Virus record (IMG/VR): IMGVR_UViG_3300028832_000097
Location: 64,001-128,000 of that record
DNA from: a virus
Lineage: Duplodnaviria; Caudoviricetes
Reading direction: 5' to 3' (one strand)
DNA length: 64,000 nucleotides
Shown here in pieces: positions 10,962 to 60,368 of the stretch. Made by a program: the position numbers and the translations under genes. Below the pieces are notes generated by a model. That model had not been told where the DNA came from and ran no database searches. It saw only the letters and a list, made by a program, of their open reading frames with translations. Position 1 is the stretch's first letter. Each line of letters starts with the position of its first letter.

Positions 10962-10999
10962 AAATTCAAATAATTCCTGTCGAAAGATTGGTCTATTTT
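10962..10999 (+). repeat. Left copy of ~40 bp imperfect inverted repeat flanking the 636-aa gene
   Basis: AAATTCAAATAATTCCTGTCGAAAGATTGGTCTATTTT versus the reverse complement of 13003-13042; 14-bp exact core TCCTGTCGAAAGAT. Confidence 0.8.
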
Positions 11000-12908
11000 A
11001 TTTTGTTACATGAATCACATATTCGTTGTTCACGCCTAAATGACTTTTGTTTTGAATAGTTTCAACAACGTATTTTTCCCAACCCGGATCAACTACCTTA
11101 CAAACCATAGTAGCATCTACGAAGTTAGGCGCATTTTTCATTGCGATTTCAAGCCATTGACATTGTGTTAAGGATTGTGCAGATTCGTCAAATCCTTCGA
11201 AATTGTAATCTTCAAAACACCTACCAGTATTTGGATCAGAATATGGTGGGCAAATAAATATAGAACATGATTTGTCTGTTTTGAATTCACGACCGTCACA
11301 CCATTCAATATGTGTTTTACCTACTTCATCATACCATTGTACCAGGTCTTTATTGTAGTCACAAGCAATATATTCTCTGTTGAGTTCTTTACAAGCATCG
11401 GCTCTAGCGCCCCAACCTGCAGCTAGGTCGTATATGTTGTCACTGCTACAGTAGTTTGTTATGAGTGATTTTGCACGCTCTTTGCTAAACCATGAAGGCT
11501 GTTTACATGTTCGTGTTACATTCATCGCAGTTAGTATTTGTTTGCTATCTATGAACCCACCAGAATAGTTAATACGATTGAGTATCATTTTCCAACGAAT
11601 TTCAGGATCATAAAACGCTTCATGTGAACTTAATTTTCCATCTACTCTTACATCGTAGAAGCATTTTGGGCGATCTTTAGCATACGGAAACTTTGGACTT
11701 TCTTTGAATAATTCAAAATCTACGCCTATTAAAGGATTAGGGCATTTATCTGAATATTTTAACCCATTGGATTCACTACTATTCGGCTGACCAAATATCG
11801 AATTCACCTTATCAGTTTTATCTGTGATAACAATGACATGATTCTGCCTATATACATCTAATTTTGCAGATATTGGTACTGTCTGTGCATAATCATACAC
11901 TCCATCTAATAAATGTGGACCTTTGACTTCAAGTAGTATATTATCTACTTTGAAATCAATAAGTGTAATGTGTTGTTTACCTGCATATTCAAATGTTAAG
12001 GGCACTTGTGTCTCAATATTGTCGTAGCCTAGATTCAACAAGAAATTATAGAACTGTAATTCGTAATTACTATCAAACCGCTTACCGTCCTTTGCAATAT
12101 TATTTTCTTTATTCAACATCATTCTCTTATGAATCTCTGGAGATTGTGACACATACTCTACCCCAAATTTCTCTCTGTTAGTGTCCTTAGATTTCTGCTT
12201 GACTTCATCTAATTGAAATACATTATCTACACCCTTGTTTTTGAGTGTTTCCGCCCGCTTGTTTTTAACTACTTCAGAAGATAAAAAATGTCTAGTCCCA
12301 TAGTTTTCTAATGAAGTTGCCTTAACTCTTTGTTTATACTCGTCTGTTTGCGTGTACCAATCAACTCCATGCTTCTTTCGATTAGTTTCCTTGATTTTTT
12401 CTACAGAACTATGAAGTTGCATAGGATTATCAACCCCGTGTTTTGATTGCATAGTGTTCCGAAGTGTAGATACCATAGCTTCAATATCCTTATTTTCAGA
12501 AGCTAACTTATACCTACATGTCTTACTACAAGTTTTAACACTAGAATCTCGCCTTACATCTATTTCAAATTGATTACCGCACACTGCGCAAGTTTGATAA
12601 TGCGGATTCTTGCAATAAACATCTCTAACAGAGGATGGCTCAAATTCTTCACCACACCACTTACATATCTTTTTAGAAAGTTTTGCAGAAGTCTCACGCT
12701 TGGATTTTATAAACGCAACTTGGCATTTTTCACTACAAGTTTGCTTTGTATCGGAAGTAGTACAATGTGTTTCAAATTCATTTCCGCAATAAGCACATTT
12801 CCGCAAAATGATAGAATTACAACACTTCTGTCTAGTGGAATTTGGATGGAATCGCTTACCGCACAATATACATGTATACAGCAAATCTGGATCAACTATC
12901 TTTCCCAT
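10998..12908 (-). CDS. Fusion: CxxC Zn-finger repeats + (K)xGV repeats + PD-(D/E)XK endonuclease + amino-DNA-methyltransferase-like domain
   Basis: Multiple CxxCGxxF/CSxxC; KHGVDNP, NYGTRH, KFGVEY repeats; FDSNYE...IDFKVDNILLEVKG; YDLAAGWGAR (SAM-binding motif I) and FICPPY (motif IV-like). Confidence 0.75.
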   Translation of the reverse strand: MGKIVDPDLLYTCILCGKRFHPNSTRQKCCNSIILRKCAYCGNEFETHCTTSDTKQTCSEKCQVAFIKSKRETSAKLSKKICKWCGEEFEPSSVRDVYCKNPHYQTCAVCGNQFEIDVRRDSSVKTCSKTCRYKLASENKDIEAMVSTLRNTMQSKHGVDNPMQLHSSVEKIKETNRKKHGVDWYTQTDEYKQRVKATSLENYGTRHFLSSEVVKNKRAETLKNKGVDNVFQLDEVKQKSKDTNREKFGVEYVSQSPEIHKRMMLNKENNIAKDGKRFDSNYELQFYNFLLNLGYDNIETQVPLTFEYAGKQHITLIDFKVDNILLEVKGPHLLDGVYDYAQTVPISAKLDVYRQNHVIVITDKTDKVNSIFGQPNSSESNGLKYSDKCPNPLIGVDFELFKESPKFPYAKDRPKCFYDVRVDGKLSSHEAFYDPEIRWKMILNRINYSGGFIDSKQILTAMNVTRTCKQPSWFSKERAKSLITNYCSSDNIYDLAAGWGARADACKELNREYIACDYNKDLVQWYDEVGKTHIEWCDGREFKTDKSCSIFICPPYSDPNTGRCFEDYNFEGFDESAQSLTQCQWLEIAMKNAPNFVDATMVCKVVDPGWEKYVVETIQNKSHLGVNNEYVIHVTK

Positions 12909-12997
12909 AATGCAAGGACCTCCTGTTATATGTATAATAACGATTTTATAGAAGGTTTTGAATAGAGGTGATATTCAGCGGTACTCTGTTTTATTAC

Positions 12998-13042
12998 AAA
13001 AAAAAATAGGTCCCATCTTTCGACAGGACCTACTTTGAATTT
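12998..13042 (-). terminator. Major capsid gene terminator, overlapping the right copy of the inverted repeat
   Basis: TAGGTCCTGTC-GAAA-GATGGGACCTA-T9. Confidence 0.9.
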
Positions 13043-13097: not shown

Positions 13098-14570
13098 TCA
13101 GAATACGCCGAGGATCTTACCGCTGACGATTGTATCAGGGTTGACAATCTTTGTGCCGTACATCGTACAATATCCTTGTTGTACAGAGCTATTAGCAAGA
13201 CCAATTGCATCCGTATTTGTCAGAGGCATATATTCTCCGAAGAGAGCACTGTTTCTTCTGATGTCTGCGGACTTGCAGCACATTACCCAAGTATCAGGCT
13301 GATAGTTAGGATCAACGATGATATCGAAGTTGTCAAGTCTACCGGACTTGTAAGGACCAACGTTCTCAGAAGCGCCTTCTGCTACGAAACCGTTCACCAT
13401 ACCAAGGTATGTGTTAACGTTTGTACCAACGATGAGCTTGTTAGGCTGAGCAAGTCTTGTTGATTGATAGATAGAAGCAGCTGCCTGGTTCAGCTTAAGC
13501 TTGAACATGTTGAGGTAATCAGAAGGTACTACAGAACCTGAAAGTACAGGAGAAGCATCGAAGTTGAACTGAGGCTTCAATGTAGCAGCATCTGCGAGTT
13601 CCTTGAAGCAAGCAGAGTTGATCTCAGCTGTGAGCTCTGAGAAAGCAGCTTCCTTAGCGATGTCGCCGATGTTTGCACCGTATTCCTGCTGAGCAGCAAA
13701 TGCGGAGAAGACAGACCAATAGCAAGCAAGCTGATGAGCTTCTGCTACCATGTTGATCTCATCAAGCTGGAGGTAGCCCTTACCCATCTGTGCGCCATAC
13801 TCATAACCGTAACCACCGTTACCAGGTACACGAGGACCAACGTTCTCGTTGTCGTACTGATATGTACCGGATACTACGTTACCAGCAGCAGCGGCGATAA
13901 CACCAGAAGAGAAGCTAATAGCGCCTGTTGAATAATTGATGTAACCTACAGGTGTTGTAGAACCGCTCTGGCAAAGATTTCCGTTACCGTCATCAACGAA
14001 GAGTGTTGTTGCACCAGATGCTGTGTACTTGATTGTAACAGAATTAGGAAGTACAGGAGTATAAACGAGAACCTGTGAGTCTGTGATAGCTGTACCCTCA
14101 GACATGATTTCGTTCTTTACAACCCTACCTGTGAAGTTAGGATCAATACCCTGTCTGTTTGCGAAAGGACTAGAGAATACATCTCCTGCCTTTGTTTCGC
14201 CCTTTGTATTCTCAGCGATGAACTTGAAGTAAGGAATGAGCTGCTGACGAGACTTCATTGCAACTGAACCAAATACGTCAAGAACGAGGAGCTTCTGTAC
14301 GAAGAGAGGAAGCAGCTCAAGGAAATCAGGACGAGCCATGATGTTTGTTGTGTTAGTAGCAGCTGTAACGGGCTGGAGCTGTCTAGCGTTAGCCTTTAAC
14401 TGCATAGCAAACTTTCTCTGCTCGGGAGAAAGGCTTGCCATAATAGAAGATGAAGGTGTTGTAACCTTGCGAGGAGCTGCAGCAGAAGTAACACTTCTAG
14501 AAGCCATGATAGGTCTTCTTGCATAGCTAGCAGGAGCAGCAGCTCTACGTGTAACTTTAGTAATAGCCAT
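13098..14570 (-). CDS. Major capsid protein (T4 gp23-like) with basic N-terminal propeptide
   Basis: VAMKSRQQLIPYFKF, L.CYWS.FS..AAQQEYG, ELTAEIN, GEYMPL, YCTMYG pattern of the gp23 family; follows the protease gene; strong terminator. Confidence 0.88.
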   Translation of the reverse strand: MAITKVTRRAAAPASYARRPIMASRSVTSAAAPRKVTTPSSSIMASLSPEQRKFAMQLKANARQLQPVTAATNTTNIMARPDFLELLPLFVQKLLVLDVFGSVAMKSRQQLIPYFKFIAENTKGETKAGDVFSSPFANRQGIDPNFTGRVVKNEIMSEGTAITDSQVLVYTPVLPNSVTIKYTASGATTLFVDDGNGNLCQSGSTTPVGYINYSTGAISFSSGVIAAAAGNVVSGTYQYDNENVGPRVPGNGGYGYEYGAQMGKGYLQLDEINMVAEAHQLACYWSVFSAFAAQQEYGANIGDIAKEAAFSELTAEINSACFKELADAATLKPQFNFDASPVLSGSVVPSDYLNMFKLKLNQAAASIYQSTRLAQPNKLIVGTNVNTYLGMVNGFVAEGASENVGPYKSGRLDNFDIIVDPNYQPDTWVMCCKSADIRRNSALFGEYMPLTNTDAIGLANSSVQQGYCTMYGTKIVNPDTIVSGKILGVF

Positions 14571-14595: not shown

Positions 14596-16080
14596 TTATA
14601 GTGTAACAAGTCCGTCGTCTGTATCACCTAATGAGGAAATCTCCTGCATAGCAGTTTCTTCAATAGCTGTTGTCGACTTAATCATCTGCTTCAATTGCGA
14701 AACAGAAGTCGAACCTGTTACAGCGACGTTGTTTAGAGATACTCCAACTGCGCTTGCGTAGAGATTAGCATAAGCATCTTGGTACTCCGCAATGATCTTA
14801 TGTGCAGACTCTAATTCAGATCTAAGGTGTGAAAGCTCTGCATCTCGGTTTGATGAGGCAGTTTGGATACTACGTGCAGCAGTGACAGTTTCATTGAGCT
14901 TCGTTTCCAGATCTGCAATGTTATCTTCCTTAGCCTGAATGGCTTGCGTAGAGGATTGGATCTTCTGTTTATATTTAAGGTTATCAGCCTTTAATATATC
15001 GATTTCTTTCTGCAACGCTTCTATTTTATTAGCATATTTTGAAGATTGCGTGTCCATTGTAGCTTGTATATCTTGAGATGCTGTAATAGATCTCTTCAAC
15101 TCTTGATTATTCTTAGCGATTTGAGATTCTAAAACAGAAACTTTATCACGGAGTTTTGTAGATGCTTGAATTGCTTTAGCCCGGTCACTAGAAATAGATG
15201 CTAACTGCATGTCCATATCATGTAACTGTGCGGACATTATCCTTTCCATTGTCTTCTGTTTACGCTTATGAGCCTTAGATTCATCGGCAAGTGACTTCTT
15301 AAGAGATGCAATAACTACATCTTTTTCTTTACATGCTTGCGAAGCTTCTACATAAAGTTCTGTAAGTGCTTCAATCTTATTACCTTCGACATCAACTACA
15401 TCTTCTAGTTCTTCAGAAGTAATTGCTGCCTTCTTTGCTTCAAGTTTTCTAAATGTATCAGACTGCCTAGCAAAACATGACTGAATAACTTCAATGGACT
15501 CCTTTGTATTAAGACCATCTATGTTATTATCAACTGCTGCACAAATCTTCTTATATTTCTGCCTACTTTCGGTATCAGTAGCTGCAGCAATTTCAGTAAA
15601 TGTTGGAATTGATTCAGGGAATGCAGGGAATGTTACAATATCAAACCCGCGGAATACAAATGTTTCAGGATCAACGGAATTACCTACAATATCTCCTGCA
15701 CCTCTAACAGAGATTCCAAATGTTACTCCTGCATCAATGAATGTTTTTACTATTCTACCAACAGGAGTGTCAACAAGGTCAAATTTTCCATATATTTTAC
15801 CACTATCATCAATATGACCTTCAGTCATAACGATACAAGCATCTTGGAAGTTCATACAATTAGGATCTTCCGGATGTCCGAGATAGCCAATATACCATTT
15901 TTTCTCAATTGCCTCTTTGTAATCATCCGATTTAAATACGTTCTCCCATACCTCACGAGTAATGTCTAATCCATTTTTATTCGTGATGTTTGCATCAGCG
16001 CATTCGCCTTCAAATGTCCCTAAGATTGCTTTGTCCTTTACATCTGCAACAATTGGAGATTTAACTGCCATATTACTCAC
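14596..16080 (-). CDS. Prohead core protease (T4 gp21-like) fused to a coiled-coil scaffold
   Basis: ITNKNG, GYLGHP (His), TPVGRIVK, FGISVRGAG (Ser), FDIVTFPA; ~300-aa helical C-terminus. Confidence 0.88.
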   Translation of the reverse strand: MSNMAVKSPIVADVKDKAILGTFEGECADANITNKNGLDITREVWENVFKSDDYKEAIEKKWYIGYLGHPEDPNCMNFQDACIVMTEGHIDDSGKIYGKFDLVDTPVGRIVKTFIDAGVTFGISVRGAGDIVGNSVDPETFVFRGFDIVTFPAFPESIPTFTEIAAATDTESRQKYKKICAAVDNNIDGLNTKESIEVIQSCFARQSDTFRKLEAKKAAITSEELEDVVDVEGNKIEALTELYVEASQACKEKDVVIASLKKSLADESKAHKRKQKTMERIMSAQLHDMDMQLASISSDRAKAIQASTKLRDKVSVLESQIAKNNQELKRSITASQDIQATMDTQSSKYANKIEALQKEIDILKADNLKYKQKIQSSTQAIQAKEDNIADLETKLNETVTAARSIQTASSNRDAELSHLRSELESAHKIIAEYQDAYANLYASAVGVSLNNVAVTGSTSVSQLKQMIKSTTAIEETAMQEISSLGDTDDGLVTL

Positions 16081-16084
16081 CTCT

Positions 16085-16429
16085 TTATTTTAGTAGTTTA
16101 CTTGATAGTCTAATCATACCACCAAGTAATAATGTTTTGATTGCTTCTTTAATTATACCAGATTCAATGTATTCATCACCGGATGCATCTTCAGAATCTT
16201 CAACTAAATCTTCATATACTTCGTCGTTGATATCTGCAATAGTATTAAGTGCAGTTTCATCTACAACTACTTCTGCCTGTGCAGTCTTCAATATATAATA
16301 TGAATCATCTACTTGTAGCTGTATATTGCCATCAAGTGTTTCTGAAATTGCGAGAGAATGCTCGTCAAATTCTGGTATCTGCGAAAGAAGTTCAAGTAAT
16401 GCAGATGATGTGAAAACTAGTTCTTCCAT
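16085..16429 (-). CDS. Acidic hypothetical head-module protein
   Basis: ORF with GGAGG RBS next to the protease. Confidence 0.65.
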   Translation of the reverse strand: MEELVFTSSALLELLSQIPEFDEHSLAISETLDGNIQLQVDDSYYILKTAQAEVVVDETALNTIADINDEVYEDLVEDSEDASGDEYIESGIIKEAIKTLLLGGMIRLSSKLLK

Positions 16430-16444
16430 ATCAATAATGCCTCC

Positions 16445-17320
16445 TTATGTATCTAACGGGTAGTATATATTATCACCGTCTTCTTCAGGAAGCCCGGCAA
16501 GCTGAGAAACACTACCAATCTGTATCTTCCATATAACTTGTACAACCTGGTTAACACCAACACGTAATATGTTTTGCTTAAGTAACTGACGATTAGCTTC
16601 AACAGTCATGTCCCAATCGCTAACATTAGGAGGTACAATTCTATAAGCTGCAAGTAATCCGTTATCTCCACTATCTACCCAAGTTTTTCTCGACCACATA
16701 CCTACTTCAGAAATGAATACATAGTCCTTACCGTCTTCCCTAAATTGCTTCAGAGCACCGGTTGATATCATTGTACTAAAAACAACATCGATTGTTTCAG
16801 GTAATTCGGATTGTGACTCAGGAAGTGTATCTCTATAAGAAATCAACGACCTAGGGAATGATTCAGAAATGAGTTCACATTTAACTGTGTGAGATGGATC
16901 AGGACGATTTTCAAATGTAGGTCCTAATCCTAAATATTCTCTTCCATTGTTTTCATTTGGATCATATCCATCTGCTCCATACCCTGGGACGTGTCGCATG
17001 TATTCAGCGAAACGAACTTCCTCAGCACCTTCCCCATCACCAACACCTTCCGGCAATCCAGATGCATCCTCATCTTGATTGAATAATCCCATTGTACCTA
17101 AAGATATGTAGCGTGGTACATAGTTTTTCAGCATCTCGTATCCTTGGTTAAGGACACCATCACCTGAAAGGTAATGCGCAATACCTAATAACATAGAGTT
17201 TGTTGCACAATTATGACCTTCGTGCGATTGTAGTATCTTACCAGTCCTTTGATCTAATACATTGATCGAAAGATTGTGAGATATTCCTAAATTTTTACCT
17301 GCTTCTAATATGCTATTCAT
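16445..17320 (-). CDS. Putative virion structural protein
   Basis: EGHN.AT...YISLGT...ISEVGMW pattern seen in baseplate/tail-collar-type proteins; structural context. Confidence 0.55.
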   Translation of the reverse strand: MNSILEAGKNLGISHNLSINVLDQRTGKILQSHEGHNCATNSMLLGIAHYLSGDGVLNQGYEMLKNYVPRYISLGTMGLFNQDEDASGLPEGVGDGEGAEEVRFAEYMRHVPGYGADGYDPNENNGREYLGLGPTFENRPDPSHTVKCELISESFPRSLISYRDTLPESQSELPETIDVVFSTMISTGALKQFREDGKDYVFISEVGMWSRKTWVDSGDNGLLAAYRIVPPNVSDWDMTVEANRQLLKQNILRVGVNQVVQVIWKIQIGSVSQLAGLPEEDGDNIYYPLDT

Positions 17321-59945: not shown

Positions 59946-60368
59946 TTACAATAACGATTCTTTATTCCAACTTACATAAGAATCGTTTGTTTCACGAAGT
60001 TTGAGCTCTTTGAGTATTACTCCGGGTTCTTTGAGATTAAGTAATCCTTGTAATAAAACTGCAATGTTGTTGCATATTGCTTCCGCGCAGAGTGGGTACT
60101 CTACTTCCTTGCTCTGAACGCCACTGCGAGTCATCGCTCGAGCAATGTCCGCTCCGAAAGAATCACCAGCGGAATACAAGAAAGTGTTATCAAAAGAAGC
60201 CTGTTTCATGTATTTTTGCAATCTAGAAAACTCAATTATCATCTTATCATCTTCAGCACGCTGAGGGCATTCCACAGTAGCTTCTAACTTATACTGATAT
60301 GCATTGAGCATTCCATCTCTAACATATGCAGCACTGAATGTAGTTCGTGTAGTTACGTCTAAATTCAT
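59946..60368 (-). CDS. QueD/PTPS-like T-fold protein lacking Zn-binding histidines
   Basis: TFSAAY, YKLEATV, MIIEFSRLQ, FDNTFL, CAEAIC, LRETNDSY match the QueD layout. Confidence 0.65.
   Translation of the reverse strand: MNLDVTTRTTFSAAYVRDGMLNAYQYKLEATVECPQRAEDDKMIIEFSRLQKYMKQASFDNTFLYSAGDSFGADIARAMTRSGVQSKEVEYPLCAEAICNNIAVLLQGLLNLKEPGVILKELKLRETNDSYVSWNKESLL

Follow-up and report, generated by a model that had tools for sequence, protein, structure and literature searches.

A phage gene beside the major capsid locus encodes a homing-type DNA-binding arm, a predicted PD-(D/E)XK nuclease and a C(P/S)PY methyltransferase module in a single chain

Why should a phage carry, directly downstream of its major head protein gene, a single polypeptide with the apparent makings of both a DNA-cutting and a DNA-methylating enzyme? 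The question is raised by an open reading frame (ORF) with an ATG start that encodes 636 amino acids (aa) at positions 10998..12908 (minus strand) of a 64,000-nucleotide stretch of Caudoviricetes DNA, positions 64,001 to 128,000 of IMG/VR record IMGVR_UViG_3300028832_000097. This whole stretch is referred to below as the window; the virus record of which it is part is 170,977 bp long and 100% complete according to CheckV. An earlier note on the window, made from the letters alone, had read the ORF as a zinc-finger, nuclease and methyltransferase fusion that might serve as a homing or restriction element, and the ORF and every motif listed there were recovered where it had placed them. The explanation that we favour, with confidence evenly balanced for and against, is that the protein is a nuclease of the homing type and that the methylase fused to it, which a shared DNA-binding arm directs to the same site, protects the genome that carries it.

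The arm occupies the N-terminal part of the protein. Two tandem double zinc ribbons of the pattern CxxC...CxxxH / CxxC...CSxxC (residues 10-134; 12507..12881, minus strand), recognized from the sequence and from weak Pfam zinc-finger matches, probably bind DNA. They contain four CxxC pairs (C13/16, C38/41, C82/85 and C107/110), each with a second ligand pair after it (CC29-30, CSEKC58-62, C99..H103 and CSKTC127-131), and the earlier count of about five CxxC/CSxxC repeats was therefore roughly right. The ribbons are followed by five helix-'YGV' repeats of ∼23 aa (residues 142-268; 12105..12485, minus strand), delimited from Pfam and PHROG matches and from the helices of the model; their xGV elements are KHGVDN157, KHGVDW179, NYGTRH202, NKGVDN224 and KFGVEY247, and residues 149-265 match Pfam DUF7487 (E 1.7e-17). 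In the AlphaFold2 model of the whole protein, which was built from an alignment of 120 relatives and has a mean predicted local distance difference test (pLDDT) score of 92.8, this region comprises seven helices linked by 'YGV' loops. The suggestion that the N-terminal half resembles phage homing endonucleases is borne out by matches of residues 81-325 to PHROG 12131 and 3339, both named 'homing endonuclease' (E 1.8e-16 and 1.3e-14), and the DUF7487 repeats are the arm common to Hef-like phage homing endonucleases; matches among GenBank phages include F-LimVIII of Dickeya phage LIMEstone1. The 'homing endonuclease' of Lactococcus phage AM1 was considered as a possible carrier of the same nuclease and rejected, the likeness being confined to the DUF7487 repeats.

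Does the region behind the arm hold a functional nuclease? Model topology and conserved residues delimit a PD-(D/E)XK core at residues 274-372 (11793..12089, minus strand), with an α-β-β-β-α-β unit spanning 281-372 in which helix 1 carries E283, strand 2 ends with D318 and strand 3 contains E327-x-K329. The latter residues fall within the motifs IDF (317-319) and LEVKG (326-330), in which the earlier note had seen such a core. Among the 120 best of 325 relatives, the set to which figures for residue invariance refer unless another is named, D318, E327 and K329 are invariant and E283 is invariant or nearly so. Almost all fold matches of the nuclease sub-model (pLDDT 81) are PD-(D/E)XK nucleases: VIA returned TnsA (Z 6.0, root mean square deviation 3.3, 99 residues aligned), SfsA (5.9) and Bax1 (5.8), and Foldseek returned Cas4, McrC, Can2, XisH, I-Bth0305I and Vsr at E 0.01-0.2. 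Residues 262-412 matched no Pfam model at E≤10, and a profile of the nuclease found nothing meaningful among Protein Data Bank sequences. Taking fold matches, residue placement and conservation together, we accept the domain as a restriction-endonuclease-like core that is predicted to be catalytically intact. It has the core fold of the PD-(D/E)XK superfamily, with the acidic and lysine residues on strands 2 and 3, and it belongs by the same token to one of the catalytic nuclease classes recognized among homing endonucleases. A linker of the form FGxPNSxxSNGLKY...PLIGVD (residues 373-409; 11682..11792, minus strand), which is conserved within the close family only and has lower pLDDT in the sub-model, joins the nuclease to the C-terminal module.

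That module (residues 410-636; 11001..11681, minus strand), which includes an N-terminal helical part and a terminal hairpin, was delimited from Foldseek and VIA matches, its profile and its invariant columns. It contains motifs X (KQPSWF), I (D494..G498..G500, within DLAAGWGAR at 494-502), II (D517), III (D538) and IV (C553-P-P-Y556; 11241..11252, minus strand), and the hairpin carries N620-x-S-H623...E629-Y630. The earlier assignment of this domain to the Rossmann methyltransferases stands. The model has the canonical strand order of a class I methyltransferase and matches Trm11 in VIA with a Z score of 12.9 (root mean square deviation 3.2, 157 residues aligned) and METTL5 with 12.3, Foldseek giving a probability of 1.0; RsmD-like proteins, TrmN and PrmC are further matches, and Erm/KsgA score nearly as well. 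The features by which class I S-adenosylmethionine (SAM)-dependent methyltransferases are recognized, namely the Rossmann fold, the G-x-G of motif I, an acidic motif II and motif III, are all in place, and within the SAM pocket D494, G498, G500 and D517 are invariant and D538 nearly so. The best fold matches are amino-methylases of the (D/N)PP(Y/F) group. At the first residue of motif IV, where amino-methylases have Asp, Asn or Ser, this module has Cys (CPPY or CSPY).

In sequence, a profile of the module matches the N4-cytosine (N4C) methyltransferase 8s9n, M.MboIIA (1g60) and DpnA (5hek) at E 1.4e-5 to 5.7e-4; these enzymes of the beta class (Pfam PF01555) are its best sequence relatives, and a language-model search likewise yields PF01555-type clusters. 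The profile match comes in two pieces. Motifs X-I-II align with the C-terminal half of beta-class enzymes (E 1.4e-5), and the 'ftCpPY...W-I-D' segment aligns weakly with their N-terminal (S/D)PPY...W-I-D segment. Because the matches split into two permuted pieces, the module resembles a circularly permuted N6/N4 DNA methylase of the beta class, with the order X-I-II-III-IV in place of IV...X-I, no internal target-recognition domain and Cys in place of Asp or Ser. Many members of the module family exceed the Pfam threshold for PF01555. As far as sequence can tell, the kin of the module are DNA methylases and not RNA methylases.

The earlier note had called the CPPY unusual. Is the cysteine of motif IV a peculiarity of this gene? 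It proved instead to be common to the whole module family. CPPY is invariant in the 120 close relatives, C[PS]PY is present at all 40 IMG/VR loci with the module, and the Cys is kept in 27 modules down to 22% identity, with Pro or Ser in second position. A library of 1.84 billion proteins contains 330 clusters with the module at E≤1e-30 and 1612 at E≤1e-10, nearly always as the C terminus of proteins of 350-880 aa, with a few short forms, and C(P/S)PY is found in 137 of the 142 top representatives. A point mutation of DPPY is ruled out as the origin of the motif by its invariance across the family. Among GenBank phages, only Lak megaphages assembled from metagenomes and a single further uncultured phage carry the module, with weak partial matches in HCTV-2 and Bacillus phage G, and a pattern search of limited sensitivity through representative genomes of 185,579 prokaryote species found eight module loci, all on contigs of metagenome-assembled genomes (MAGs). 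From its occurrence on phage or MAG contigs only, the family appears to be phage-restricted, and C(P/S)PY serves as the invariant signature of this large methylase module.

The joining of nuclease and module is no artefact of assembly and no chance fusion, either of which is ruled out by the 325 relatives, found on contigs of up to 220 kb; the earlier reading of a genuine fusion holds in hundreds of proteins. In the best 120, which align over 59-100% of its length, neither catalytic center has been lost, and the invariance of the catalytic residues places both active sites under selection. Zinc ligands are kept among the relatives and the numbers of ribbons and repeats vary widely, whereas nuclease and methylase are well conserved. 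This bears on the idea that the protein is a domesticated or decaying element, that is, a DNA-binding protein with an inactive nuclease and/or methylase kept as a regulator or passenger. Remnants of such genes do exist, among them a 356-aa copy at locus L022 and the short forms P0106 and P0107, which lie on small contigs. All catalytic residues of both domains are nevertheless intact in the ORF and in 119 relatives, the gene has a promoter-like motif and ribosome-binding site of its own, and the model is confident throughout, and we hold decay to be highly improbable.

The same phage encodes a second protein of this kind. A 617-aa paralog outside the window (G000:C1:∼15294-17147, equivalent to L007:358-2211; minus strand) is composed of zinc ribbons, DUF7487 repeats, an EDxHD/Vsr-like nuclease and a CPPY module, and is homologous to the 636-aa protein from end to end (24% identity, E 2e-32). 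Its nuclease matches the catalytic domain of I-Bth0305I (3r3p; E 0.0017) and Pfam Vsr (E 0.0025). One type of methylase module is thus joined to two unrelated types of nuclease within a single phage.

What kind of element, then, has settled beside the capsid gene? The slot that follows this gene was surveyed in 52 IMG/VR phages with capsid proteins 53-73% identical. Many have no relative of the gene or of its arm there, ∼28 hold a DUF7487 gene, and only one (L077) holds a full nuclease-methylase ortholog. In ∼20 of the 52, the occupant is 44-53% identical to the first 270 residues and shares nothing beyond them. Behind the shared part, the occupants in L068 and L079 have a nuclease of the Hef-like kind (PHROG 3339, 6e-123) and then a Mom-like domain (PHROG 1384, 1.3e-11), the Hef-like/EDxHD endonuclease of L068 being 51% identical over residues 5-275 with a non-homologous effector. 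The earlier note had offered, as one possibility, an endonuclease that had fused to a resident phage methyltransferase. A recent event of that kind is unsupported, since the slot in relatives is either empty or occupied by a Hef-like endonuclease; the survey of the 52 turned up no stand-alone methylase there.

Orthologs elsewhere lie beside genes for ribonucleotide reductase/dUTPase or within clusters of DUF7487 genes, and single phage genomes may carry two to three copies. Arms of capsid-adjacent orthologs are 52-54% identical, compared with 23-34% for orthologs at other loci, in which nuclease and methylase are still 49-67% identical. The arm therefore tracks the locus while effectors are swapped, which is the pattern expected of modular homing endonucleases that target DNA near their insertion site. 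Presence in and absence from a conserved slot, varied positions, several copies per genome and the tracking of the locus by the arm all support the earlier note's proposal of a homing element.

Some individual loci add to the picture of how such genes are arranged. Two full nuclease-methylase genes stand in tandem at L021:6001-10116, 22% identical to each other's type, and at L002:6001-9840 the gene after the ortholog encodes a DUF7487 protein that contains a Mom-like domain. Three abutting ORFs at L022:4962-8780 encode an arm of the distant type with a partial nuclease (338 aa), a DUF7487 protein (587 aa) and the 356-aa remnant mentioned above, which retains a methylase module of the close type (63-67% identity) but lacks both the arm and the N-terminal half of the nuclease; the arrangement looks like nesting or replacement among such elements. 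Another carrier of a CPPY module, a protein of 632 aa at L035:4744-6642 in a phage of 233 kb, is likewise encoded immediately behind a Gp23-like capsid gene (26% identical); its N terminus differs, with a helix-turn-helix and similarity to PHROGs annotated as 'HNH endonuclease'. It may be that genes bearing the module land repeatedly in the post-capsid slot.

From these features we infer cleavage, methylation and self-protection, in the following order of events. The zinc ribbons and the five NUMOD3-like 'YGV' helices would stretch out along an extended DNA site close to the capsid gene in related phages, and the PD-(D/E)XK domain would cut the DNA at the site bound by the arm. Recombinational repair from the genome that bears the gene would then copy the gene, with neighboring markers, into the cut genome. 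In the resident genome, the C-terminal SAM-dependent module, held at the same site by the arm, would methylate a base and so confer immunity. The protein would in essence be a mobile single-chain restriction-modification (R-M) unit that is as site-specific as homing endonucleases are, leaving a mark on its own genome and cutting DNA that lacks the mark, much as the earlier note had supposed.

Several observations weigh against this explanation. The nuclease matches known folds with modest scores (Z≤6, Foldseek E≥0.01), and no cultured phage with the module was found among GenBank phages. For the methylase, the PF01555 score of this ORF is 22 bits against a cut-off of 26.7, no characterized precedent was found for Cys at the Asp/Asn/Ser position of motif IV, and this Cys may weaken or alter amino-methyl transfer. 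Finally, identities in the closest clade are 85% and 60% for the capsid protein and 68% and 59% for the nuclease-methylase; as the latter diverges in step with the capsid gene, there is no sign of recent transfer and the gene looks vertically inherited within that clade.

The points that concern the methylase raise the alternative that the CPPY module is not a protective amino-methylase at all. It could be a sensor that binds SAM or flips bases and thereby gates cleavage, or its invariant Cys could take part in a different reaction, for instance by covalent attack on C6 of a pyrimidine, or in the transfer of a group other than methyl. SAM is known to gate cleavage in Type IIG enzymes. The replacement of a hydrogen-bond acceptor by Cys, in nearly all representatives and at every locus as described above, would fit such a role, as would the sub-threshold Pfam score and the further residues that are invariant outside the SAM pocket (CDEW-type C583/W585, N620, S622, H623, E629 and Y630). 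Our literature search found nothing on DUF7487 and no paper linking CPPY to a methyltransferase, which is a limit of the search and not proof of absence. Set against these are the canonical and invariant residues of the SAM pocket, the retention of P-P-Y in motif IV, and nearest sequence relatives that are genuine N4C or N6-adenine (N6A) DNA methylases with SPPY or DPPY at the aligned position. Cys is moreover close in size and shape to the Ser found at this position in N4-cytosine methylases with SPPY. On this balance we regard a sensor or another chemistry as quite unlikely.

Another alternative is a phage-borne single-chain R-M weapon that does not home, in which the phage genome is kept methylated and unmethylated DNA of the host or of superinfecting phages is degraded, comparable with the breakdown of host DNA by T4 or with P1-type phage-borne R-M. 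Such a gene would be kept because it is beneficial and not because it is selfish. In favour of this, the gene is found at one locus across deep divergence (capsid proteins 60-85% identical) and has itself diverged to a comparable degree, and both its catalytic centers are invariant. A search of the genome for PF02086 (Dam), PF01555 (N6_N4), PF00145 (C5) and PF00303 (thymidylate synthase/dCMP hydroxymethylase) found only the two CPPY modules to be methylase-like; with no other methylase or hypermodification enzyme found, the module could be the mark of self and non-self. The arm is nevertheless of the homing type, long and modular, its sites should therefore be rare, and this is a poor fit to bulk degradation of host DNA. 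Presence and absence of the gene in the slot, the replacement of effectors there, the tracking of the locus by the arm and the clustering and nesting of these genes with other DUF7487 genes also speak against a weapon, which we consider unlikely.

How does such a protein compare with known systems? For enzymes of the Hef type in T4-like phages, a role as homing endonucleases has experimental support (PMC2988022, PMC3239194): Hef of phage U5 cleaves nrdB (PMC2988022), F-LimVIII was classed by its authors as a Hef-like freestanding homing endonuclease (PMC3296691), and the type belongs to the Vsr-like EDxHD family of I-Bth0305I (PMC3239194). The 636-aa protein shares with Hef of U5, F-LimVIII and I-Bth0305I (3r3p) the zinc-ribbon and DUF7487 arm and, with Hef-like genes, a freestanding position beside conserved structural genes of T4-like phages (PMC3296691, PMC2988022). 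It differs in its catalytic center, which is a D...ExK core and not EDxHD/Vsr, only the paralog matching 3r3p, and it has a methyltransferase at the C terminus where Hef-like proteins have a Mom-like domain. Single-chain enzymes of Type IIG/IIC, such as MmeI, Tth111II and TstI (PMC2582602, PMC3899748, PMC4027205), similarly place a PD-(D/E)XK nuclease N-terminal to a SAM-dependent DNA methylase. Their N6A methylase is of the gamma class, has NPPY and is combined with a target-recognition domain at the C terminus, and their genes serve cellular defence, whereas the phage protein has an N-terminal homing-type recognition arm and a small, permuted, beta-class-like CPPY module, and ends 80 aa after CPPY. 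The use of a PD-(D/E)XK core by a mobile endonuclease is a likeness to I-Ssp6803I, which we take to be a member of the homing endonuclease family of that name. I-Ssp6803I is small and intron-encoded and is not known to have a separate DNA-binding arm or methylase, and it gave no sequence or fold match in the nuclease searches. The PD-(D/E)XK enzymes constitute one of six families of homing endonucleases (PMC3384342). Papers on Type II R-M systems were all that a literature search on homing endonuclease-methyltransferase fusions returned, and no earlier description of a homing-type nuclease with its own modification domain was found there, which again reflects the limit of the search and is not proof.

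A second design of this sort is suggested by Hef-like 'homing endonucleases' (PHROG 3339) with a C-terminal domain at L068:8456-10531, L079:8484-10352 and L010:8017-9825, a domain termed Mom-like from its PHROG 1384 match (E 1.3e-11) and sub-threshold Pfam Mom matches (E 7e-4 to 0.02) only. For the Hef-like copy in the genome under study (L004:1231-2925), no Mom match was found. Nuclease and Mom-like domain would make up another combination of cutter and DNA modifier on the same arm, and the parallel hints at a general design. It is possible, though on the doubtful side, that many phage 'homing endonucleases' are mobile single-chain R-M units, with the C(P/S)PY methylase here and a Mom-like domain in Hef-like enzymes as the modification that makes the carrier immune, and that the invariant Cys may mark a distinct methylase chemistry or product. 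Homing endonucleases and restriction enzymes are in any case thought to share ancestry. Self-immunity conferred by the methylase, if real, would account for the ability of a selfish nuclease to target immutable genes, for example that of the capsid, without killing its carrier. The family would also offer natural, modular binders of long DNA sites coupled to a cutter and a methylase, of relevance to genome and epigenome engineering, and its invariant C(P/S)PY provides a clean test of the role of the first residue of motif IV in amino-methyltransferases, in a family that is large, apparently confined to phages and without a cultured member found.

How is the gene expressed? Every long ORF of the window is encoded on the minus strand. 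The gene for the head maturation protease (14596-16080, minus strand; PHROG 207) precedes that for the major head protein (13098-14570, minus strand; PHROG 138), and the nuclease-methylase ORF lies directly downstream of the latter. Because the same two neighbors in close relatives match Pfam Gp23 and Peptidase_S77, the virus is taken to be a distant T4-like phage. An intrinsic terminator of the capsid gene (12994..13036, minus strand) has a 15-bp stem followed by T9 and a predicted folding energy of -20.8 kcal/mol (z -5.1). The expression signals of the nuclease-methylase gene (12919..12950, minus strand) consist of TATAAAATCGTTATTATACATATAAC, a recurrent promoter-like motif, and the ribosome-binding site AGGAGG (12919-12924), situated 37 nt (from the motif copy at 12945) and ∼10 nt upstream of the ATG, respectively. 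Because the capsid terminator and then the promoter-like motif and AGGAGG precede this ATG, the gene is a separate transcription unit.

The earlier note had placed class-A (12937) and class-B (12952) promoter motifs upstream of the ORF; a AATCGTTAT..TATA copy at 12945 and TATAAAAT at 12950 lie in this region. In the window, AATCGTTAT-N(6-9)-TATA is strand-biased, with 15 copies on the coding strand and five on the other, and it lies 37-56 nt upstream of at least seven ORFs; copies upstream of ORF starts are found at 59959, 56573, 54641, 49370, 46905, 41810, 28246 and 12945 (all minus strand). The motif is a candidate promoter class of the phage. The T4 late promoter TATAAATA was considered as a general promoter of the phage and is not supported in this role, as it is not enriched before ORFs and only one of its four copies precedes one.

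A megablast search with 7 kb around the gene gave no match among GenBank phages. The gene is flanked by an inverted repeat of ∼40 nt (10962-11000, plus strand, and 12994-13042, minus strand), one arm of which is the capsid terminator; no such repeat is present in the relatives L002 and L003. The other arm (10962..11000, plus strand), directly 3' of the stop codon, is a degenerate inverted copy of the terminator that does not fold stably. The alignment of the two arms covers ∼40 nt and includes the 14-mer TCCTGTCGAAAGAT, for which an exact-word search of the window found copies at 10975-10988 (plus strand) and 13015-13028 (minus strand) only.

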